The notes below the pieces were generated by a model. That model did no database searches, was not told the origin of the DNA, and saw only the letters and a list, made by a program, of their open reading frames with translations. Position numbers and translations under genes: made by a program. Shown piece by piece: positions 1,586-47,337 of a stretch of DNA of 64,000 nt. How positions within the stretch are numbered: the first letter of the stretch is position 1; every line of letters begins with the position of its first letter. Source of the stretch: Candidatus Babelota bacterium (GTDB taxonomy: Bacteria; Babelota; Babeliae; Babelales; JAHIUU01); NCBI GenBank assembly GCA_018817025.1, contig JAHIUU010000006.1, forward strand, positions 251,909 through 315,908, written 5' to 3'.

Positions 1586-2216
1586 CTGTTCCTGATTTCA
1601 AAAGCTCAAGGATTTTGACTGTTGCTTGTTTTTGTAACGTTTCTATCGATTCTTTACCGTCAAGTATGATAACGTTTTTTCGGTTTATAAAAATCTTATC
1701 AAACCCGTCACTTACCCGTTTCCAAAACTGTTTTTCTTCTGTTTCGAACGAAGTGAGCTTGTTTCCACGTTGCATAATTCGTTCGAGTGCAGTTGTAAAG
1801 TCGAGTTTAATATAAAAAGTCAGATCTGATTTGATGTTGCCCATAGCCCATTCGTTTGTTTGAATTATCATGTCTATGTCGAGGCCGCGACCATAGCCCT
1901 GGTAGGCGACCGACGAGTCGTCGAGTCGATCAGAGATGATAACCTTACCTTCCTCTAGGGCAGGGATAATTGTTTGTTCAAAGTGTTGCGCTCGGTCGGC
2001 TGCGAACAGAAGGTATTCTGCCTTGTCACAAATATCGTTTTTTGCTTCGTGAAGTAAGATGCGCAGCTGGTGTCCTAGAGGTGTGTCTCCAGGTTCTTTC
2101 GTGAGTATGACTTGGTGATCGTGAGCCTCAAGTGATTTTTGCAGCGCGTGAGCAAGAGAGCTTTTTCCTGAGCCGTCGATTCCTTCAATACTAACGAGAA
2201 GGCCTTTGTTCTTCAC
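1578..2216 (-). CDS. tmk: Thymidylate kinase
   Basis: IEGIDGSGKSS P-loop, TKEPG, LFAADRAQH, DR..DSSVAYQG. The GTG at 2216 overlaps the upstream TGA (GTGA). Confidence 0.95.
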   Translation of the reverse strand: MKNKGLLVSIEGIDGSGKSSLAHALQKSLEAHDHQVILTKEPGDTPLGHQLRILLHEAKNDICDKAEYLLFAADRAQHFEQTIIPALEEGKVIISDRLDDSSVAYQGYGRGLDIDMIIQTNEWAMGNIKSDLTFYIKLDFTTALERIMQRGNKLTSFETEEKQFWKRVSDGFDKIFINRKNVIILDGKESIETLQKQATVKILELLKSGTDE

Positions 2217-3448
2217 GAGAGACCACTTTCGGAACAACCTCGCTTGCCACGAGTGTATGCGATAGCAGGTGTATCGAGGGGGCGAGGGTTTCGATTTACA
2301 ACGTATGAGTTTTCTAAGCAGGAACAGACATACTTGATCTCGTTATCTGTAAGCTCTGGCCAGATAGGAAGAGCAAGAATGTTTTGCGTTGTATTGTGCG
2401 CAATTGGGCAGTCTGTCGCAAGTTCTTTTGGTGGTGTAAGGAATGGGATTTGGTCAAGCGTTTTTGGATAAAAAATGTTTGTTTCAATTTTTTTTTCTAG
2501 CAACTGTTCTTGAATGGTTTTTCGATTGGTGACTTGGATTGAGTACTGATGATATACGTGATGGCCAACCGTTTCACGGGGTGTTTTTATGAATGGAATT
2601 TTCGATAATCGTTTTGTGTAGTATTGGGCAATTTCTCGTCTTCGATCGTTATAGTCGTCAAGATACTTAAGTTTTTCCGTTGCGATGAGTGCTTGGATTG
2701 CATCAAGACGAGAGTTTCTGCCTTGGCACTCATAGTTGTAATGGGTTGCCCGCCCATGGTTGCGGAGTTTGAAAAGTTTTTCTGCAAGTTGAGTACTATT
2801 TGTTGTCATGACACCCCCGTCGCCGCATACCCCCAAGTTTTTTGTTGGGTAAAGAGAGAAGCAAGAGATGTCGCCAAATGTGCCAGCTTTTTTATTGTCG
2901 ATGTGCGCGCCGACGGCTTGGCAAGCGTCTTCTATTATCCACAAGTTCCAATCGTTAGCGATTGATTTAATTGCATTATAGTTTGCACATTGACCAAACA
3001 GATCTACTGAGATGATACCTGCGATAGGGAAACCAGTTTTTTTATGGACTGCTCGATCGTGACGAACGATAGCGTGTATTTTAAGCCAGGTTTCTATTTT
3101 TTTTGGGCAAATGTTATATGATTCGTCAATGTCGATAAAGACAGGGTGTGCTTTGTGAGCTGCGATTTCGCTGCTTGATGCAATGAACGAAAATGGCGTT
3201 GTTAAGACTATAGAATTGGGGGTAATTTCAAGTGCGGCAAGAGAAAGCCAGAGAGCATCTGTTCCCGAGTTGCATGATATTGCGTGTGTCGTTTCTGTAT
3301 AGGTTGCAAACTTTTTTTCAAATGTATCAACGTATGGTCCGCCAACAAATTGGTTGCTTGAGAGAAGCTGGTTTATTTGCAGCTCAAGTGAGTTTTTAAT
3401 GTTACTCAACTGGCGTTCAAGAGAAAAGAATGGAATATGATGATTCAT
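2213..3448 (-). CDS. DegT/DnrJ/EryC1/StrS PLP-dependent sugar aminotransferase
   Basis: CNSGTDAL, TTPFSFIAS, IEDACQA, SLYPTKNLG (PLP lysine), G.NSRLDAIQA, LALPIWPEL. Confidence 0.93.
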   Translation of the reverse strand: MNHHIPFFSLERQLSNIKNSLELQINQLLSSNQFVGGPYVDTFEKKFATYTETTHAISCNSGTDALWLSLAALEITPNSIVLTTPFSFIASSSEIAAHKAHPVFIDIDESYNICPKKIETWLKIHAIVRHDRAVHKKTGFPIAGIISVDLFGQCANYNAIKSIANDWNLWIIEDACQAVGAHIDNKKAGTFGDISCFSLYPTKNLGVCGDGGVMTTNSTQLAEKLFKLRNHGRATHYNYECQGRNSRLDAIQALIATEKLKYLDDYNDRRREIAQYYTKRLSKIPFIKTPRETVGHHVYHQYSIQVTNRKTIQEQLLEKKIETNIFYPKTLDQIPFLTPPKELATDCPIAHNTTQNILALPIWPELTDNEIKYVCSCLENSYVVNRNPRPLDTPAIAYTRGKRGCSESGLS

Positions 3449-3543
3449 AGGGCCCTGCTTTTTACGCAAAAGTGTTGTATTTATGAAATGTTCAGTATAA
3501 GCATAGAACTATGTTTTGTTAAGTTTCGTGATCGACTCGATTC

Positions 3544-3580
3544 TTGACTTTTGACAAGCGTATTTTACAGTTAGTATATG
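3544..3580 (+). promoter_or_regulatory. Probable sigma70 promoter(s) for the giant-protein operon
   Basis: TTGACT(3544)-N16-TACAGT, and an overlapping TTGACA(3551) with TAGTAT/TATATG downstream; spacers are not canonical. Confidence 0.45.
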
Positions 3581-3648
3581 TAGAAAATTAGAGGACTGGT
3601 AATGGAGTTTTTTTGTTTATTGTTTGTTCTTGGGCCGTGATGACAGGT

Positions 3649-3682
3649 AAACACGTGTTACAAATATTTGTAACACGTGTTT
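3649..3682. repeat. Perfect 34-bp palindrome AAACACGTGTTACAAAT|ATTTGTAACACGTGTTT
   Basis: Read directly. Each arm contains the self-palindromic 10-mer AACACGTGTT (3650-3659 and 3672-3681). A T-run follows. Confidence 0.95.
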
Positions 3683-3752
3683 TTTTGTTAACAGATAGGA
3701 GAAGCATTTTTACTGAGTAGTTTTTGGATGTTTTTCAAAAAGAGGAGAGGCA

Positions 3753-6700
3753 ATGAGACGAAGGTTTATGTGGGCACTATTTTTAGTAAGTTGCCTATGG
3801 ATAGGTGCGGTGCAATTACAGGCGATTGAATGGGATGGCACGGGGACGGCGCTTCGAGTGAGCGGGAAGTATCAAACCGACTTGCTTACATCGATGACCA
3901 TTAAAGGACATGTTGTCATTGATGGGGATGTAACGCTTGTTCGATCTGATAATCTTGGTTGTTTACCAATTTTTATTACTGCGGATACCTTTATTTCTAC
4001 TGATACGGGGGGTAATGGGTATGGGCACTTGAGTTTGTACGCCGATGAGTGTTCGGGGTATTACTTTCAAGTCGATAACGATCTGATTTTTACTGGTTCG
4101 AATCATGGTGATAAACATGCTAATAACAGAGAGCTTACCCTGACATTTTCTGGTCCCGGACAAACAGTCTTTCATATTTCAACCGGCAAGATGGTTGGGT
4201 TTGAAGGTTTCTTTGGCGACGGCAACGCTGCAGTCAATGGTTGGGATTCCTACTTGGATGACTACACAAAGACTGGTTCTGGGGTCATGGTTTACATCAC
4301 CATGGACCAAACCTATGATGAGGCGGTTGTTCAAGGGGTCAATAAAGTTGTTTTTGAACGTTTTTACAAATATGATGCTGCTGCTGAAGCGGCAGGAAGT
4401 TCTACTGGTATAGGTGATTCAGTTAAAATATCGATTGGTAAAAACTCATTTATAACCTATATATCGGACGTAGCCTCTGGTGTTTTAAATTGTGACGGAA
4501 CAGGATTTGGGTACGGTTCTTTGGCGTTCGATCCGATGTGTTACGGTCCTGGTCGCATGTTGCTTCATCTTAAGGGATCATACTACGTTGACAGTGCTGG
4601 CGAGATCGTTGGAATAACAAATGGCTACAACGATGGCGCGTTGGTTATTTCTGGTCACCACGTTGAAGATATGGCGACGATGGATGGCATTCGTCTTGGG
4701 GTTGATTTGAATAAACCGGCCGGTGTTGAAGCGATTTGTAGAATTGTTGACGAGCAGGCGATACGAGGTGGCGAAGGTCTATACTGGGATGTTGGTAATA
4801 CGTATACGCTTTATCAAGATAGCTTTGGTGAGCCGATTATCAATACGCTTGCCGGGGGGTCTTTTGATGGTATGCCTTCCCGTCGAGGCTTGTTGGTCCT
4901 CAACGAGAATAAGAGTGTGCCGGCGCTTGCGGCAGACACCTATGTTAACAATGAGTGGGCAACCAAATATACTTTTTCGGTCTTAGAGCTTGGGTCAACA
5001 TCAATCAGACCGGGTTTTATTCTTGGTACCAACGGTAAGATGGAGTTATTTCACAATACATTCTTAGATTATATTGCTGCATCGACGCAGATGCTTCAGG
5101 TTGGTCTTGTCGATCAACTCGGGGCAACAATCTCAACCACGGCTCGAAAGACACATAATCCTTCGGCATTGATAGCTGATGGCTTGGGAATTTTAGATGT
5201 CAATAATGTGAATGCGAGTGAGCCTTATGCAGCCGGAGCACTTCTCTTTCCTGACTATCTCGCTGATCTAGCGAGCCAGGGAGGGAGACATGCACAGATT
5301 TTGTTGCGAGGTGATGCGCGACTGTATTTGCGATCTGGTGTGATGAATGATGGTTATATTGATGCTGGCGATATCGCAGCAAATGGCATGGGTGGTTATA
5401 TCTATGTGCCGACAGGCGACCGAACCTATTCATTTACTATTAATTATGACGATACTGAAGGAACGTTTGATGGTTCGTTTATTGCTGGTATTGCAGCAAA
5501 TGGCGGGCTGTGGTACGAGACGATAGGTGAGGGAAACAATGTTCTTGATGTTGAGGGTAAGCTGACGATTCGTTCAACAAAAGATGATAATAGAACGAAT
5601 GAGAGTGGTTTTGTTCCTTACAAACTCAATGTTGTTCCACCCGCAGCGACTTATACTGATTATTGTTTTGCTCGACACGTACCAACGGGAGTTGCTCCTC
5701 GCGGTGCGCTGAACTTGCCCCCAATAAAACTTGACTACATGGGTCAAGAGGTTTGGAATGTTGATAATGATCAAGCGATGCGACCCTTGAGAGTTGATCG
5801 AGTGTATCCGGTTTACAATTCATCGTCGATACTCATGAATAATGAGCTTGCGATGCATAATGTGAACTGGCATCACAACGATATTCTTAAGATTGCAACG
5901 CCTGAGCAAGACAAAGCAGAACCAGTTGTCGTTGGTGGTGAGAAAGCAGCATATGATTACGCTTATTGGTCAACACTCAGTAATCCTGACTTGGCAGAAA
6001 CGCTCTATGTTGAGAACCCAATAGAACAGATTAACACAAAGGTTCCACTATTGAGTTTATATGACTCAACGTTGCATTGTCATGAATCGATCGTGATGTC
6101 TGGTGTTCGTGTTGTCGTGACCGATAAGTTTGTGTACGAGGTTGATAACGCTGATGGTCATGCAAAACTTGTACCAAATGTTTCTAAATTTATCTGTTAT
6201 AACCATGGTGATCCGCTTGATATGTTAAAGCGGGGTTATGGTCGAACAATTTTGTTGGGATCTCAGCAGAACAAGATGGCTGACGGTTGTCTTCTCAATG
6301 ATTACATGCAAAATGCATATCTCAATATTTATCGAAGTTGGACAACTGACTGGAATACCGGTGTCTGGGGAGACGACTTTAGTAACGGTCATCTTATTCG
6401 ATTGAGTTTAGAGACCGAGGCTCAGCCAAAATATACGATGCAGTACGAAAACAGAGCCAATCACAGTACGCTGCCTGAAACGTTCTCGCTTCTCCTTGAT
6501 GGAGAGGTTAGTCGCTATAAGAGAACTGCAACACAGGTATTTTACCTTGGTAACGCATCGTTCTCATCTCTTGGTTGGACAACGACGATGGGTGACCAGG
6601 TTGTTAAGCCTTCAGATTTGAGAGAACTAACCGAGACCTACTCATATGGTATTAACGAAGGCGCTCGACCTCGACCATGGGATTCAGCTTGGACTGGTGG

Positions 6701-9317
6701 AGACTATGTTGTTCTTGATCAGTTGTCGGTCAATCCTGCTGACTATAAGTTCAGTTTGAGTACGGGAGAGAATGATCCTGCTGAGCTGTATATCAATGGT
6801 GACAACTATTACTTTGGAGGTCGGGACTCATCTGGTAACTTGGCGACCGAGCCTGTCGTTGCTTCTAATGAATCAGGAATTTTCTACACAAACCATGGTG
6901 GCTTGACGCACATCAACCAAGCTGACAAGAGTGCCGATCAGCAGCATTACTATGATGCGTTTGTTGATACGGTTTTTGCCTATCGTCAATGGCCTCGCAT
7001 TTGGGATGTCAGCAGTGGGCAGTATATTCACGGATTGTCTGGTGTCGTTGACTTACCTCATGATCAGGTCAAGTTTGGTCGAAGTATTCAGCCATATGAA
7101 CTAAACTTCCCAACGATGCTTACTGAGAATGACGGACAACAGAAAGAACGCAACGTCAAGTTGATGGCATACAAGATCGATCAGTATGGAAAGAATCCTG
7201 CGAATAGATTTAAAGCATCTGGTGAAGAGATAACAATTCCGTGGAACTTTAGAACGGATAAGTCTGTCAAAATTACGTACAACGGCATGGAGCAAGCGCC
7301 AACTTATACGCCAGTAAAATCATTGCCGTTTATGAGTGATAGCATACTGGATCAGGTGAAGTCGATTTTCCGTTCGACAACGCCTGCGTTTGAAGTTGGT
7401 CCGAACGATGGTCCAGCGGAGATGCCTGAAGCTATTTTGACGGTTACAACAGGTGATATTATTGCACAAATGAGAGTCTCTGGGGCAACCAAAGCTGATC
7501 CGTTTCATCTCTATGTGAGTGGAGGACCATTTGGCTACGGAACTGTTCGAGAATTTACATCTCTTGCGTCGAACTACTTCAATCCTGGTGAGGGGTGTCA
7601 TGCGGCGGTTTTCTTAGATGGCGGTGCGCATATTGGCATCGGCTCTCGAGACTGGAACGAGCACTCATGTAACGCCTGGTCGGTTCTTGGGTATGACTAC
7701 TTAACGCTTTATCCAAACGGTAACAGCTTTGTTCGAGTGAATTCAGATATTATTGTTGCCGATAGGCTTCCAATTATTCCAACAACCAACTTTGGTGTTG
7801 TGTCCCGTGATAGACAATCGTTGACGTGGGATGATGAGCCTCAGAGCATAACATTCTACTCTACAGAGCCTCGGGAGATTCGTATTCTTGAGGGTGGAGA
7901 GCTTGACTTAAGCGCGTTCGGAAACCCTAGAACTGATAAATCATGGCCGTTCTATGTGGAAGACGAAGAGGTTATATATCAGCCTGCAGGGATAGAGTTT
8001 GCGGGTCAAATCAGAGTTGTGCTTGAGCCCGGTGCACGGATTAGGTTCCCAGCCAGTGTTGTGAGCCACCCAAATGATGAGAACGAACCAAACTTTGCGG
8101 CACCGGTTTTGTACTTTAACGATCAGACCGAGTTGATTTTCGAATCAAGTAAAGACATTGATGAGCAGAATTTCCCGGATGTGTATGGAGCTGACTCGAT
8201 TCGAAATAAGATTCTTGGTGTTGGTATGATTAGATTTAATCGAAATGCAAAGCTAAAGCTATTAGGGTTATCGCTTTTGGGAATCGAGACTGATGATTTG
8301 ACAAAAACAACAAGTGTGACGATTGAGCTTAATCGAGAATCTCAGTTCTTGATCGGAGATGAAACATCGGCCGGCGGAGGCTTCCAGATTGGGAATATTG
8401 TCGATAGAGGTTCTGATCACACAATTGATTTCAACTTGGTGTTAAAAGATCCAGAGTCGATGTTTAGAATCGAACGGGAAGGATTTTTTGGGTTGTCGGC
8501 TGGTACGATAAACAAGTTTGAAATCCCAAATCGTACTTGGAGATTCATCAACCTTCATAACGTTCGTACGATAGATGTCAATATTATCAATGGGACCTTC
8601 GATCACTCTCAAATGTTCCATGGCTCTGAGGACGATACATCTCTTATGGCAATAGGCCCCGCGAATACATATCGATTTAGAATAGGTGATGATACTGCTG
8701 CTGATGCGTCGCGATTAGATACGACGTTTATTCGTGGTGGTGGAAACATTTTATTTGTTAATACTTCAAGTCTTTCACCGGAGAGTTTCCCTAACTCTGG
8801 TGGTGAGGATGGATTGGGAGCGCCGTATCACTCGCAGGTGTTTATTCCGGAAGACAGTACAGTTGCAACAGGGGTGCCGGCAACACCGTTCCCAACGCCT
8901 AACGCAGCAACAGGAACCTACTCGAACGGGGATTATACGATTATGGCCTCGACACCATCGCTTGCACAGAGAGGAACTCCTCCTGACGGGGTTTCTTCCA
9001 CAAACGTGTACGCAGGCCGAGTAGATACAATGACTTTAAGTAAAGAGTTTCAGGGCGATGCTCATGCGTTCTTTCACTATTTGGGATATCCGCCTTTAAA
9101 CGCTTATGCGGGAATATCTAACTATGTTTGTTTTGCTGCGGCTCAAGAGAAGCATTATTTTGCCTACATTGGTGGGACTGCATTTAATACAGTCTTTAGA
9201 AGTATTAAAGAGGATCTAGGGCCTGAACTTAGGGTTGTAGATTCGTTAAAGGTTGGAGCTTTGAATACTGGAATTGGTGCAAGTAATACTGCTTCAGGAT
9301 TGTCGTCTGGTGTTTAG
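3753..9317 (+). CDS. Giant (1854 aa) secreted protein of unknown function, probably beta-rich surface protein
   Basis: Long uninterrupted ORF, RBS GAGGAGAGG, Sec signal MRRRFMWALFLVSCLWIGAVQLQA. Rich in G/D/T/N/Y. No family motif recognised. Confidence 0.9.
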   Translation: MRRRFMWALFLVSCLWIGAVQLQAIEWDGTGTALRVSGKYQTDLLTSMTIKGHVVIDGDVTLVRSDNLGCLPIFITADTFISTDTGGNGYGHLSLYADECSGYYFQVDNDLIFTGSNHGDKHANNRELTLTFSGPGQTVFHISTGKMVGFEGFFGDGNAAVNGWDSYLDDYTKTGSGVMVYITMDQTYDEAVVQGVNKVVFERFYKYDAAAEAAGSSTGIGDSVKISIGKNSFITYISDVASGVLNCDGTGFGYGSLAFDPMCYGPGRMLLHLKGSYYVDSAGEIVGITNGYNDGALVISGHHVEDMATMDGIRLGVDLNKPAGVEAICRIVDEQAIRGGEGLYWDVGNTYTLYQDSFGEPIINTLAGGSFDGMPSRRGLLVLNENKSVPALAADTYVNNEWATKYTFSVLELGSTSIRPGFILGTNGKMELFHNTFLDYIAASTQMLQVGLVDQLGATISTTARKTHNPSALIADGLGILDVNNVNASEPYAAGALLFPDYLADLASQGGRHAQILLRGDARLYLRSGVMNDGYIDAGDIAANGMGGYIYVPTGDRTYSFTINYDDTEGTFDGSFIAGIAANGGLWYETIGEGNNVLDVEGKLTIRSTKDDNRTNESGFVPYKLNVVPPAATYTDYCFARHVPTGVAPRGALNLPPIKLDYMGQEVWNVDNDQAMRPLRVDRVYPVYNSSSILMNNELAMHNVNWHHNDILKIATPEQDKAEPVVVGGEKAAYDYAYWSTLSNPDLAETLYVENPIEQINTKVPLLSLYDSTLHCHESIVMSGVRVVVTDKFVYEVDNADGHAKLVPNVSKFICYNHGDPLDMLKRGYGRTILLGSQQNKMADGCLLNDYMQNAYLNIYRSWTTDWNTGVWGDDFSNGHLIRLSLETEAQPKYTMQYENRANHSTLPETFSLLLDGEVSRYKRTATQVFYLGNASFSSLGWTTTMGDQVVKPSDLRELTETYSYGINEGARPRPWDSAWTGGDYVVLDQLSVNPADYKFSLSTGENDPAELYINGDNYYFGGRDSSGNLATEPVVASNESGIFYTNHGGLTHINQADKSADQQHYYDAFVDTVFAYRQWPRIWDVSSGQYIHGLSGVVDLPHDQVKFGRSIQPYELNFPTMLTENDGQQKERNVKLMAYKIDQYGKNPANRFKASGEEITIPWNFRTDKSVKITYNGMEQAPTYTPVKSLPFMSDSILDQVKSIFRSTTPAFEVGPNDGPAEMPEAILTVTTGDIIAQMRVSGATKADPFHLYVSGGPFGYGTVREFTSLASNYFNPGEGCHAAVFLDGGAHIGIGSRDWNEHSCNAWSVLGYDYLTLYPNGNSFVRVNSDIIVADRLPIIPTTNFGVVSRDRQSLTWDDEPQSITFYSTEPREIRILEGGELDLSAFGNPRTDKSWPFYVEDEEVIYQPAGIEFAGQIRVVLEPGARIRFPASVVSHPNDENEPNFAAPVLYFNDQTELIFESSKDIDEQNFPDVYGADSIRNKILGVGMIRFNRNAKLKLLGLSLLGIETDDLTKTTSVTIELNRESQFLIGDETSAGGGFQIGNIVDRGSDHTIDFNLVLKDPESMFRIEREGFFGLSAGTINKFEIPNRTWRFINLHNVRTIDVNIINGTFDHSQMFHGSEDDTSLMAIGPANTYRFRIGDDTAADASRLDTTFIRGGGNILFVNTSSLSPESFPNSGGEDGLGAPYHSQVFIPEDSTVATGVPATPFPTPNAATGTYSNGDYTIMASTPSLAQRGTPPDGVSSTNVYAGRVDTMTLSKEFQGDAHAFFHYLGYPPLNAYAGISNYVCFAAAQEKHYFAYIGGTAFNTVFRSIKEDLGPELRVVDSLKVGALNTGIGASNTASGLSSGV

Positions 9318-9327
9318 TATTGTATTA

Positions 9328-9350
9328 AGGGAGGGGAGCTCCCCCTCCCT
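9328..9350 (+). other. Intercistronic GC-rich hairpin
   Basis: AGGGAGGGG-agctc-CCCCTCCCT, 9-bp stem between the giant gene and the barrel gene, with only a weak U-tail. Confidence 0.7.
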
Positions 9351-9405
9351 CTTGCTTGAGAAGGGTCAGAAGTTGTGTTGGCGAGTTAAAAGTTTGGGAG
9401 AGACA

Positions 9406-11226
9406 ATGAGAGTGAGAGGCAAGAAGAATTTGCTTGTTATCGCTGCGATAACGATGCTATTTGGTACGTTGGTTGCAACGGAGTTTCGTTCGCCACTAAT
9501 TATTGAACGAGGACCGATGCGGTATGTGTTTGAGGAGTGGGGGGAGTCCGATTGTGGCCTAAAGGTATGGTCTTCCTGTTTTACACGAGAGTCCCATAAA
9601 GCGTTTTTATCTCATGGAACCAGTACGTATCCATTGAGTACGTTGTTCTTTAATAAGTCCTGCTTTAATTTGAGCGAGATTTTTCCTAATTCATACGTTG
9701 ATCCGGCAACTCAGTACTATTCACCGTATCTTGGGGTTACCCAATTAAAGCCTCGTATAACTTATTACGAAAAGGGGGTATCGCTTGGTGCTCGCTGGGC
9801 GCATCCTGTTTACAAAAACAAGGGTAGAGTTGGATTGCGGATTCAGGTTCCGTTTAGAAGCGTAGAAATTGAGCGAGAAGATCACGGCGACAAAGATACG
9901 AATCAACTTGATGATCTTATGACTGGTGAGATTGTTGATAGAGCCGGAACGCCAGCCCCTGCGACCGATGTGTATGCCCGAGCAATTAGATTAGATTTTT
10001 TGCAAAGTTTGCCGTATCAAGATACTGGGGAACTAATTTTTGGATTTGTTGGTACGTCGCCTAGAGTTTTGGGAGACGATGCTATTTTGTGGGATACTGC
10101 TGCACCAGCAACCGTTGGTAAGCGGGTTGGTGTTGTAATTCAGGCCGATGTGGGAGCGGCTCCAAGATCGCCAGATAGATTCTTGGGGATTCACCAAAAT
10201 CCTTCGGCGGCTCCAGCCGTTACGCCGGTTCCAACAGCTTTGGGTGAAAATGGTGCCATAAGTGATGATAAGCAGTTTTATTTTGCAAGTGGGGCTGATT
10301 ATAGTGCTTTGAATGTTAATACTGGATCTGCATCTGAGAAGGCGGCGGCGCAACAGAAAGCTTCGCAGTTGTGGGTTACCTCTGTTCATGAAACCGGTGC
10401 AGACAATATTCCGGGCCTAAGTAGTGGTTCTAAACTGATGTGGGATAGAATCGATTGGGTTTTAAATAACTACAACGATAACGTATTTGAGTGGCTTGAT
10501 GATCGAGGGTTTGAGTTTGCGACTCATCGTCGTTGTGGGATTGGTGATGTCGATCTTGACCTGTTCTATGAGCATCAATTCAATGATGATGCTGCTGGTG
10601 AAGTTATGATTGGCGTTCGCTTTCCAACCGGCGCAAGTGACAACTATTGTTGCAATCCGTATCGCGCGCAGATGGGTAATGGCGAACACTGGGAGATAAA
10701 GCTTGGTGGTATGATTGCCTGGCAGCCAATTGATTGGCTGAACGTCAAGGTTGATGGACGTTATTCGTTCGTGCTTAGTGATGATGAAAGACGTATGGCG
10801 GCGTTCAAGGGTGCGTGCGTAAAGAATATCGGTCCGTGTGTTAAAGCTAAGGTGAGCTGGGAGTATTTTGTTGGGACGGTTGACTTAAACCTGTTTCACC
10901 CAAAGACCGATGCGATCTCTTTTGTTCTAGGCTATGAGTTCTATTATAAGACAAAAGACAGTATTGACTTTAAGTGTCGGACGATAGAGTCATGGTTAGG
11001 GAACAAGTGGGATAGTGACACGTCGGCGTGGGTCGAGAATAAGCAGACGCTTGATCACTGTGTTGCAGAGAGGTATACCGATGCGATTACGCACAAAATT
11101 CGATTGGAAACCTCGTTCAGAATAAATAAGTATTTTGAGCTGTTCTGCGGCGGGGCCTACACGATTGCCGGGCGTAATGCGCCACGCGATTGCGACGGTT
11201 TCGGAGGGTTTGTTGTAACATTCTAA
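9406..11226 (+). CDS. Probable outer-membrane beta-barrel protein (COG4313/SphA-like motif, divergent)
   Basis: ATG 9406 with RBS GGGAG and signal peptide MRVRGKKNLLVIAAITMLFGTLVA. Alternating amphipathic strands, GIGDVDL...GVRFPTG motif, C-terminal GGFVVTF ending in Phe. Confidence 0.65.
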   Translation: MRVRGKKNLLVIAAITMLFGTLVATEFRSPLIIERGPMRYVFEEWGESDCGLKVWSSCFTRESHKAFLSHGTSTYPLSTLFFNKSCFNLSEIFPNSYVDPATQYYSPYLGVTQLKPRITYYEKGVSLGARWAHPVYKNKGRVGLRIQVPFRSVEIEREDHGDKDTNQLDDLMTGEIVDRAGTPAPATDVYARAIRLDFLQSLPYQDTGELIFGFVGTSPRVLGDDAILWDTAAPATVGKRVGVVIQADVGAAPRSPDRFLGIHQNPSAAPAVTPVPTALGENGAISDDKQFYFASGADYSALNVNTGSASEKAAAQQKASQLWVTSVHETGADNIPGLSSGSKLMWDRIDWVLNNYNDNVFEWLDDRGFEFATHRRCGIGDVDLDLFYEHQFNDDAAGEVMIGVRFPTGASDNYCCNPYRAQMGNGEHWEIKLGGMIAWQPIDWLNVKVDGRYSFVLSDDERRMAAFKGACVKNIGPCVKAKVSWEYFVGTVDLNLFHPKTDAISFVLGYEFYYKTKDSIDFKCRTIESWLGNKWDSDTSAWVENKQTLDHCVAERYTDAITHKIRLETSFRINKYFELFCGGAYTIAGRNAPRDCDGFGGFVVTF

Positions 11227-11247: not shown

Positions 11248-11287
11248 AAAAAGAAAAGGTGAGATTCAATTCTCACCTTTTCTTTTT
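11248..11287 (+). terminator. Rho-independent terminator
   Basis: Perfect 17-bp inverted repeat AAAAAGAAAAGGTGAGA-ttcaat-TCTCACCTTTTCTTTTT just after the barrel stop. Confidence 0.9.
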
Positions 11288-46005: not shown

Positions 46006-47337
46006 CTATTTCTTTTTACTCATCATCTCCCAGAACTCATCGTTTGACTTGGTTTTTCGCATCTTTTCAATGATAAATTCCATGCCGTCGATTGTGTTCA
46101 TAGTGCCAAGAAATTTCTGCAGTATCCAGAGATTTTTGACCCCTTCTGGAGTGAGGAGAAGGTCTTCACGCCGAGTTCCTGAGCTTTGAAGATCAAAGGC
46201 CGGATAAATCCGACGATTAGAAAGTTTTCTTGTGAGGTGGATTTCCATGTTGCCGGTTCCCTTGAATTCTTCGAAGATAACCTCATCCATACGAGAGCCG
46301 GTTTCGATAAGTGCCGTTGCGAGGATTGTTAGTGATCCCCCCTCTTCGACATTTCGTGCGGCACCAAAAAAACGCTTTGGTCGTTGCAGTGCGTTCGCAT
46401 CTATACCACCACTCAAAACTTTTCCTGATGACGGAGCCAAGGTGTTGTAAGCGCGAGCAAGACGTGTCAGAGAGTCGAGAAGGACAACGACATCGTGGCC
46501 ACATTCAACAAGTCGTTTTGCTTTTTCTAACACAATCTCTGCTACCTGAACGTGTCGTGTTGCGTACTCGTCAAATGTTGAACTAACGACTTCTGCGTCC
46601 ACCGAACGCTGCATGTCGGTTACCTCTTCTGGGCGTTCGTCGATGAGTAGGATGATCATGATCACTTCAGGGTGATTCTCGATGATGGTATTAGCGATCT
46701 CTTTCAAGAGAACCGTCTTACCCGTTCTTGGCGGAGCAACGATGATTCCTCGCTGTCCCTTACCTACCGGCGTGAGAATGTCCATGATTCGTGTTGAAAT
46801 AACGGTTGGTGTGCCTACGAGATTGAATTTTTCGTCAGGAAAGAGTGGTGTTAGGTTTTCAAAAACTGTTTTATGTGAAGAGTGTGTTGGTTGTGCAAAG
46901 TTTACGCTTTCAACCCGTTGAAGTGCGAAATATTTCTCGCCTTCTTTTGGCTTTCTCAAAGTTCCTTTGATGACGTCTCCTGTTCGCAATCCAAAACGTT
47001 TAATGTGTGCCGGAGAGACATAAATGTCATCCGGTCCTGGAACGTAGTTGAACTTTGGGGAGCGCAGGAAACCAAATCCGTCAGGAAGACGCTCGAGTAT
47101 TCCTTCTCCATAAATCTCAACATTTTTTTCAGATTGTGATTCAAGTATTTTGAAGATAATTTCTTGTTTTTTTAAAGAGCCAACGTCAGGAATGCCAAGC
47201 TTTTGAGCATAGTCGATTAAATCAGTGATGCTCATCTCTTTTAATGAGCGCATATTGATTGACGTTTTAGGGTGCTTTAGGTGAGTATTAACTTCTGGTT
47301 TGTTATTTTTTTTTATGTCTTTTGTCATTTTCCCCAA
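46006..47337 (-). CDS. rho: Transcription termination factor Rho
   Basis: [50 protein letters not shown]. Confidence 0.98.

Follow-up and report, generated by a model that had tools for sequence, protein, structure and literature searches.

A perfect palindrome of 34 bp, located in the spacer between two divergent genes of an uncultured Candidatus Babelota bacterium (Babeliales; Dependentiae/TM6), a parasite of protists, raises the question of whether it acts as DNA, as the binding site of a regulator, or as RNA, in the leader of the gene downstream. Both options were left open in the original prediction, which proposed either a dimer-of-dimers operator on one helix face or a hairpin or attenuator in the 5′ untranslated region that switches between one long stem and two short ones. 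The stretch of DNA that we analyzed (here, the window) is 64,000 nucleotides long and corresponds to C21:251909-315908 of a 1.1-Mb metagenome bin of 26 contigs with 43% G+C. Based on sequence comparison, the palindrome is probably the DNA image of a plus-strand Rho-independent terminator that would serve as leader attenuator of an operon encoding a giant exported protein and its partner.

The palindrome reads AAACACGTGTTACAAATATTTGTAACACGTGTTT, spans positions 3649 to 3682, and is perfect over 34 bp without a spacer, as originally described. It is found in a 283-nt divergent spacer between a DegT-family aminotransferase gene on the minus strand and a 1,854-aa open reading frame (ORF) on the plus strand, 71 nt upstream of the giant-gene start, and no long gene ends before it. 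Its reported placement between a promoter and the ribosome-binding site of the giant gene also held, with the promoter-like TTGACT-16-TACAGT upstream and a Shine-Dalgarno sequence (3742 to 3750) downstream, as did the presence of a T-run (TTTTGTT follows the palindrome, and seven consecutive T are at 3680 to 3686) and the absence of an adjacent regulator gene in the gene neighborhood. A self-complementary 10-mer, AACACGTGTT, is nested in each arm (3650 to 3659 and 3672 to 3681; 22 bp from start to start); these nested boxes are real but peculiar to the window sequence, being absent from the ortholog L006. By our own calculation, the chance expectation of a perfect 17+17 palindrome in 1.1 Mb is about 6e-5, and this 34-bp sequence occurs a single time in the genome. 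Since its flanks are not inverted copies of each other, the palindrome is not a chimeric fold-back join. An assembly artefact, named with the original prediction as an outcome that would overturn it, is further argued against by the diverged L006 ortholog, which was assembled independently and has the same hairpin. A second 34-bp zero-loop perfect palindrome, AAAACAATTCGAAAAAGCTTTTTCGAATTGTTTT, is located at C18:93562-93595, inside an ORF and 82 nt from the start of a minus-strand gene according to crude ORF calls.

When read as RNA, the palindrome forms a plus-strand hairpin of 15 pairs, with a 5′ arm at 3649 to 3663, an AUAU loop at 3664 to 3667, and a 3′ arm at 3668 to 3682. The predicted energy of this stable stem-loop is −19.0 to −19.5 kcal/mol (z about −5.8), and none of 200 shuffled sequences folded as well. 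Immediately 3′ of the stem is a U-run, TTTTTTTGTT (plus strand, 3680 to 3689), whose first three T are the last three bases of the stem; L006 has TTTTTTGTT in the same position. There is no matching A-run on the 5′ side of the palindrome, and the terminator therefore reads on the plus strand only. A terminator scan identified the palindrome as the sole terminator-like site within positions 3300 to 3900. Just upstream, a second in-frame UGA (3641 to 3643) and a purine-rich tract (together 3641 to 3647, plus strand) can pair with the U-run and extend the stem by seven weak pairs; in L006, where the sequence is UGA UGA UGA, the extension is eight pairs. A scan of positions 3000 to 4200 against Rfam, at E values up to 10, returned only chance miRNA-like matches to the hairpin.

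The closest comparison comes from L006 (Logan SRR20820740), the sole close contig, in which the giant protein is 74% identical, the DegT protein 75% identical, and the spacer 85% identical to those of the window. The two loci share the same order of promoter block, Shine-Dalgarno sequence, 12-codon ORF, hairpin, and TTTTGTT. Comparing the upstream regions of orthologs had been proposed as a check, and L006 has a hairpin at the same place (2758 to 2789; AGCACGTACTACAA-GTGT-TTGTGGTACGTGTT). Nine of its 34 positions differ from the window (26%), seven of them in the stem, and 14 of the 15 pairs are kept. The stem changes consist of two double compensatory replacements (G-C to A-U and U-A to C-G) and two G.U wobbles, with loss of the outermost pair, so that pairing rather than sequence is conserved in the one relative that carries the hairpin. 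On the plus strand, the energy is −18.7 kcal/mol in L006 versus −19.0 kcal/mol in the window, while on the minus strand of L006 the wobbles become C.A mismatches, leaving 12 of 15 pairs and −12.4 kcal/mol. In simulations with seven random stem substitutions, as many pairs were kept in 0.3 to 2.7% of trials (P = 0.003 to 0.03), and such an energy was kept in 0.07 to 0.2% of trials (P = 0.0007 to 0.002). The compensatory changes, the wobbles that pair on the plus strand only, and the retained U-run thus point to an RNA hairpin read on the plus strand, that is, a Rho-independent terminator. Template switching in quasi-palindromes can produce concerted changes on both arms without selection on RNA, and the compensatory changes are therefore weaker proof of selection here than in ordinary RNAs. 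The plus-strand-only wobbles, the equal energy, and the U-run nonetheless argue for RNA function, in a comparison whose statistics are thin (two sequences for the hairpin, three for the mini-ORF).

The hairpin also belongs to a class that recurs in this genome. We tallied perfect stems, in place of a looser hairpin definition that gave too noisy a picture of gene context. In the main contigs there are 41 perfect hairpins whose arms measure at least 12 bp, most of them with A-runs and T-runs at their feet, and 31 of the 41 follow an ORF stop codon at a distance of up to 200 nt, usually 0 to 30 nt. Long perfect hairpins are this organism's intrinsic terminators, often bidirectional. The hairpin under study begins 8 nt after the stop of a mini-ORF and, among perfect hairpins with arms of at least 16 bp, is the one found in a divergent spacer upstream of a gene start. 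Its striking symmetry is explained by the terminator reading, and the nested palindromes are incidental. In annotating these genomes, long perfect palindromes with T-runs are best read as terminators first.

Genome-wide tallies left out two sets of short contigs, one (C1, C2, C3, C5, C7, C15, C17, C22, and C26) with 51 to 62% G+C and the other (C11 and C13) with 30 to 34% G+C, compared to 42% in the main contigs; short contigs with such deviant G+C are probably bin contamination. The longest inverted repeat in the genome is a 66-nt hairpin with 29-bp perfect arms (ACATAAACCCAAACACACCCAACAATTCG...) at C21:87034-87099, which is 3 nt after the end of a minus-strand gene and has no clear T-run. 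Only one other strong hairpin followed by a T-run precedes a gene start within a divergent spacer, at C21:54567-54592 (GGGTCGCGG...CCGCGACCC, then CTTTTTTCTT), and it could be a second leader attenuator.

Upstream of the palindrome, a predicted sigma-70-type promoter is present on the plus strand at 3544 to 3571 (−35 TTGACT, 3544 to 3549; 16-nt spacer; −10 TACAGT, 3566 to 3571). It matches the consensus at 9 of 12 positions, in a phylum where sigma-70 consensus scans are weak evidence, and would place the start of transcription near 3578 to 3585. The promoter block, GATTCTTGACTTTTGA.A...TATTTTACAGTTAGT, is almost invariant in the window, L006, and a more distant relative, L131 (JGI Ga0074469_10404032), which was found via its DegT protein (72% identical). 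Between promoter and palindrome is a U-rich mini-ORF of 12 codons (plus strand, 3602 to 3640) encoding the peptide MEFFCLLFVLGP, with a UGA stop and the second in-frame UGA behind it. It is preceded, 6 nt before the ATG, by the Shine-Dalgarno sequence AGAGGA (plus strand, 3590 to 3595), which is read directly from the sequence and kept in the three relatives with varying letters (AGAGGA, AGAGGG, and TAGGAG). This conserved mini-ORF before the giant-protein operon is a new observation, missed in the original prediction.

The mini-ORF peptides are MEFFCLLFVLGP in the window, MESFCLSFILGP in L006, and MKGSRLDLFILGP in L131, and both the start codon and the C-terminal F-V/I-L-G-P-UGA are constant in all three lineages (n = 3). 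The sole indel within the mini-ORF among the three sequences is 3 nt long and in frame. Synonymous codons are used for Leu (CTT/CTC/CTA), Gly (GGG/GGT/GGT), Pro (CCG/CCA/CCA), and Ile (ATA/ATT), and of the five sites that vary within the final five sense codons, four are third positions with synonymous changes (P about 0.05 by our own binomial calculation). Modest but coherent, this evidence suggests that the mini-ORF may be translated and that its C-terminal end may matter. A genome search for paralogous mini-ORFs ending in ...LGP* found none. Recoding of UGA was ruled out, as UGA ends 196 of 729 ORFs and RF2 is encoded.

Downstream of the terminator, a Shine-Dalgarno-like GATAGGAGA (plus strand, 3694 to 3702) is the same in L006 and reads ATGAGGAGG in L131. 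No ordinary start codon was found at the right distance downstream of it, and in folds it pairs with the U-run preceding the giant-gene Shine-Dalgarno sequence. The ribosome-binding region of the giant gene (plus strand, 3730 to 3755) consists of the U-run GUUUUUC, AAAAAGA, the Shine-Dalgarno sequence GAGGAGAGG (3742 to 3750), and the ATG at 3753; the segment GUUUUUUC-AAAAAGA-GGAGAGGC (3730 to 3751) is nearly invariant in the window, L006, and L131. The U-run and the Shine-Dalgarno sequence can pair in a G.U-rich manner, with a local anti-Shine-Dalgarno/Shine-Dalgarno stem in L006 and L131, and this pairing may be a small translational control stem at the start of the giant gene. A further segment upstream of the giant ATG, GTAGTT(G)T.TG.A..TTTTTCAAAAAGAGGAG, is conserved even in clades without the leader.

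The gene that follows encodes a 1,854-aa exported protein of a Babeliales-wide family (plus strand, 3753 to 9317). A search of 5.8 billion proteins recovered, apart from its own entry, 13 relatives of the giant protein, and 75 of 261 Babeliales genomes have a member of its family, at identities of up to 48%. A partner ORF of 650 aa follows at 9274 to 11226, with a terminator near 11248 (C21:263156). On the other side of the spacer, the divergent DegT/DnrJ/EryC1 aminotransferase gene (minus strand, 2213 to 3448) has tmk and holB behind it and a likely minus-strand promoter, TTAACA-17-TATACT, at 3522 to 3494. The divergent DegT-giant arrangement is conserved among relatives. The 10-mer TTTTGTTAAG (3513 to 3522) is also found in L006, L007, L009, L011, L012, L131, L133, and L134 but was not seen in the spacers of L008 or L132; it is conserved in most of the DegT-giant spacers read, including those of clades without the leader, and its minus-strand TTAACA fits the DegT −35 element. 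A similar sequence, TTTTGTTAA, is located after the palindrome at 3683 to 3691. Elsewhere in the window, the gene for Rho factor is on the minus strand at 46006 to 47337 (TIGR00767; 658 bits). GC skew switches at C21 ~160,000 from about −0.19 to about +0.16, marking a replication origin or terminus. The window is on the G-rich side of this switch, with the giant gene encoded by the G-rich strand, which would be the leading strand only in the case of an origin. With the switch about 95 kb from the palindrome, a replication origin or dif site was ruled out for the latter.

The distribution of the leader indicates that its parts differ in age or importance. L131 is the sister of the window and L006 in the DegT tree (support 99/99) and keeps the promoter block and the Shine-Dalgarno-preceded mini-ORF, but it has no hairpin or palindrome; an A/U-rich stretch of 13 nt is there instead, and the leader fold is not significant (z = +1). 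Neither promoter block, mini-ORF, nor hairpin with a T-run was found in 17 more distant orthologous leaders. The leader cassette is thus seen in a clade of three members, all that the DegT tree recovers from the collections, and the terminator in two of the three; on these sequences, the hairpin arose later than the mini-ORF or is easier to do without. As L131 lacks the hairpin and the 17 leaders lack the element altogether, the element is dispensable for the operon. A search of the spacer DNA against 40 relatives found a homolog only in the window's own genome, with no genome of the same family among GTDB representatives. Scanning GTDB genome contigs with an alignment of the giant protein gave no match, a metagenome scan gave only relatives at up to 56% identity, and a search with the N-terminal 303 aa, aimed at fragments on contig ends, gave nothing. 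Among leaders without the mini-ORF, Shine-Dalgarno-preceded start-stop pairs (ATG TAA and ATG TGA) occur in L007 (3935 to 3943) and L133 (about 521 to 516, minus strand of the locus), and in L012 a longer upstream ORF extends into the giant-gene start.

Several other explanations of the palindrome were weighed against the terminator. An operator, at which a dimer-of-dimers transcription factor would occupy one helix face over both AACACGTGTT boxes, or over the entire palindrome, and repress the leader promoter or block elongation, would account for the perfect DNA symmetry and for two self-complementary 10-mers spaced 22 bp apart, and L006 is still 12/14 symmetric at the DNA level. However, L006 has AGCACGTACT and GGTACGTGTT in place of AACACGTGTT, neither of them self-complementary, and L131 keeps the promoter without the palindrome. 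Bases have changed symmetrically with pairing kept, with mismatches that are G.U on the plus strand only; the location at about +70 to +105 from the predicted start would be unusual for an operator, and no regulator gene is adjacent. The genome scans suggested with the original prediction revealed no regulon: AACACGTGTT has 4 exact occurrences versus 1.25 expected, two of them at the palindrome itself (at up to one mismatch, 43 versus 38 expected genome-wide, nearly all inside ORFs), and the TGTTACA half-site arrangement TGTTACA-N6-TGTAACA is unique in the genome. A genome-wide search for paired CACGTG likewise found no regulon. The stem top, TTACAAATATTTGTAA, is loosely NrdR-box-like (8 of 16 positions), but the genome encodes no NrdR, and this candidate was ruled out. 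With the nested boxes lost in L006, the palindrome absent from L131, no motif excess, no half-site conserved in orthologs, and no cognate regulator, the dimer-of-dimers operator did not hold up, and we consider a DNA operator of any kind very unlikely. An element for mRNA processing or stability, with a duplex of roughly 22 pairs acting as an RNase III site or protective stem-loop, is highly improbable. Some surface-protein mRNAs are stabilized by long leaders with hairpins, and the extended stem reaches 7+15 pairs in the window and 8+14 in L006; against this, weak A-U and G.U pairs make up the extension, a conserved U-run immediately following the stem is the mark of termination, and protective stems act at the extreme 5′ end, whereas the palindrome is about 70 nt into the predicted transcript. 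That the palindrome has no function at all, being either an assembly artefact or a neutral quasi-palindrome that template switching made perfect as the DNA was replicated, is barely credible. Template switching can yield perfect palindromes and paired changes without selection, and the sister lineage L131 does without the element, but a different sample, assembled independently, carries the hairpin in the equivalent position, where it folds with equal energy despite 26% divergence in sequence, the flanks exclude a chimeric fold-back, and the U-run is kept only on the side of a plus-strand terminator.

A different challenge accepts the terminator and assigns it to another unit. The promoter, mini-ORF, and hairpin could form a stand-alone small gene with an RNA of roughly 105 nt, whose product is a 12-aa peptide and/or a small regulatory RNA and whose end is simply marked by the hairpin, while the giant gene has its own promoter downstream. 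The gap of 8 nt between stop and hairpin is what terminators at gene ends usually show in this genome, the hairpin itself is canonical and strong, and the mini-ORF is conserved at the peptide level. A weak, unrecognized promoter downstream of the hairpin is possible, and GTAGTT(G)T.TG.A..TTTTTCAAAAAGAGGAG before the giant ATG could hide one, but a sigma-70 consensus scan found no promoter-like site on the plus strand between the hairpin and the giant gene. In L131, moreover, the promoter and mini-ORF run into the giant gene without a terminator, suggesting a cis-acting leader, and 12 aa would be very short for a free product that has no other copy in the genome. We therefore regard a separate gene as unlikely and favor the leader attenuator. 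The attenuator option of the original prediction is supported at its core by the compensatory changes, the plus-strand-only G.U wobbles, the kept U-run, and the terminator class of the hairpin; no such support exists for the proposed alternation of one long stem with two short ones, given that AACACGTGTT alone folds at 0 kcal/mol and is not conserved.

As a leader attenuator, the hairpin would set the amount of operon mRNA. Transcription from the conserved leader promoter would meet the terminator about 70 to 110 nt downstream, before the giant gene, and each transcript would then terminate at the U-run, as a leader RNA of roughly 105 to 110 nt with the mini-ORF on it, or else continue into the giant gene. 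Here, we infer the promoter, the actual 3′ end, and the dependence of the operon on read-through. The likeliest form of control is also the most speculative step, possible but doubtful, namely that read-through is set by translation of the mini-ORF or by its slow stop. Decoding of UGA is especially slow after Pro (PMC3082878), PepNL, a 14-aa peptide from an upstream ORF (uORF), can arrest at UGA (PMC11890864), and terminator hairpins can be prevented by trailing ribosomes (PMC5021804). A ribosome dwelling on the Pro-UGA stop would have its leading edge where the stem begins, and it might destabilize the base of the hairpin directly or serve as a readout of translational capacity. The first stop base is 11 nt from the stem foot in the window and 12 nt in L006, and by our own estimate a ribosome on the first UGA reaches only about position 3650. 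Such a ribosome is estimated to cover the purine tract and melt one or two A-U pairs but to spare the 12-pair core, and anti-termination is therefore not assured by geometry alone. No conserved antiterminator was found, either with the leader folded before the 3′ arm is made or with the whole leader folded up to the giant-gene start. Alternative pairings of the 5′ arm are weak and differ between the window and L006, and a long-range pairing between the mini-ORF and the giant-gene Shine-Dalgarno sequence is seen in the window only. A long shot would be that the F-V/I-L-G-P-UGA mini-ORF encodes a new ribosome-arrest leader peptide of Dependentiae that gates a giant surface system and that, in the lineage of the window, was coupled to a newly acquired terminator, the ribosome on Pro-UGA choosing between leader RNA and operon mRNA without an antiterminator.

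These results place a striking sequence in an ordinary class of elements, as most likely an intrinsic terminator that would act as a leader attenuator, and remove the exotic operator reading. As a by-product, they bring to light a small conserved Pro-UGA leader peptide before the operon for a giant exported protein and its partner in Dependentiae, a phylum in which, to our knowledge, genetics is lacking and hardly any gene regulation has been described. Should read-through be under mini-ORF control, the leader would offer a simple and testable case in which translation is coupled to the expression of a surface-protein operon of very high cost. Such a leader would also provide a snapshot of a terminator being added to an existing uORF leader, because the sister lineage L131 is without a terminator. 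This natural pair of lineages with and without the terminator is a second point of interest.

In comparison with known attenuators, the leader shares single features with several systems. As in pyrBI (pyrL) and pyrE of Escherichia coli, the leader ORF is U-rich and terminator action could depend on how close the ribosome is to RNA polymerase (PMC5021804); in contrast, the pyrL ORF runs through its terminator, whereas the mini-ORF stops 8 nt before the hairpin, and there is no link to pyrimidine metabolism here. With trpL, pheL, and hisL of E. coli, the leader shares a Shine-Dalgarno-preceded short ORF upstream of a terminator, an ORF that is recognized here by its conservation, and enterobacterial pheL also encodes a hydrophobic peptide ending in Pro-UGA (PMC3082878). 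In contrast to these leaders, there is no conserved run of sensed regulatory codons among MEFFCLLFVLGP, MESFCLSFILGP, and MKGSRLDLFILGP (Phe-Phe of the window is Ser-Phe in L006), the leader has no alternative 1:2 / 2:3 / 3:4 pairing or exclusive antiterminator pairing overlapping the leader ORF, and the genes that would be controlled encode a surface protein and its partner rather than a biosynthetic pathway. Since no antiterminator is conserved, this is not a trp-type attenuator.

TnaC and PepNL (PMC8450073, PMC11890864) resemble the mini-ORF in being very short uORFs with a conserved C-terminal end beside UGA; conserved residues beside the stop are likewise seen in the three sequences available here (n = 3). 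The last residue of TnaC is Pro, as in the mini-ORF peptide, and UGA codons in tandem, as in the window and L006, would stop ribosomes that read through, which is how escape has been described for PepNL. Neither peptide is similar in sequence to the mini-ORF product, and the gene context here suggests no inducer. TnaC acts via Rho and a rut site, whereas the leader has an intrinsic terminator in two lineages and an A/U-rich tract in the third. The closest likeness is to leader intrinsic terminators (attenuators) in general. The leader studied here differs from these in a stem that is unusually long, A-U rich, and perfectly symmetric and in having no riboswitch, T-box, or other Rfam leader match and no conserved antiterminator fold. 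It shares with them a stable stem-loop and U-run between the promoter and the first structural gene, with pairing kept through compensatory changes and a hairpin class that matches the gene-end terminators of this genome.
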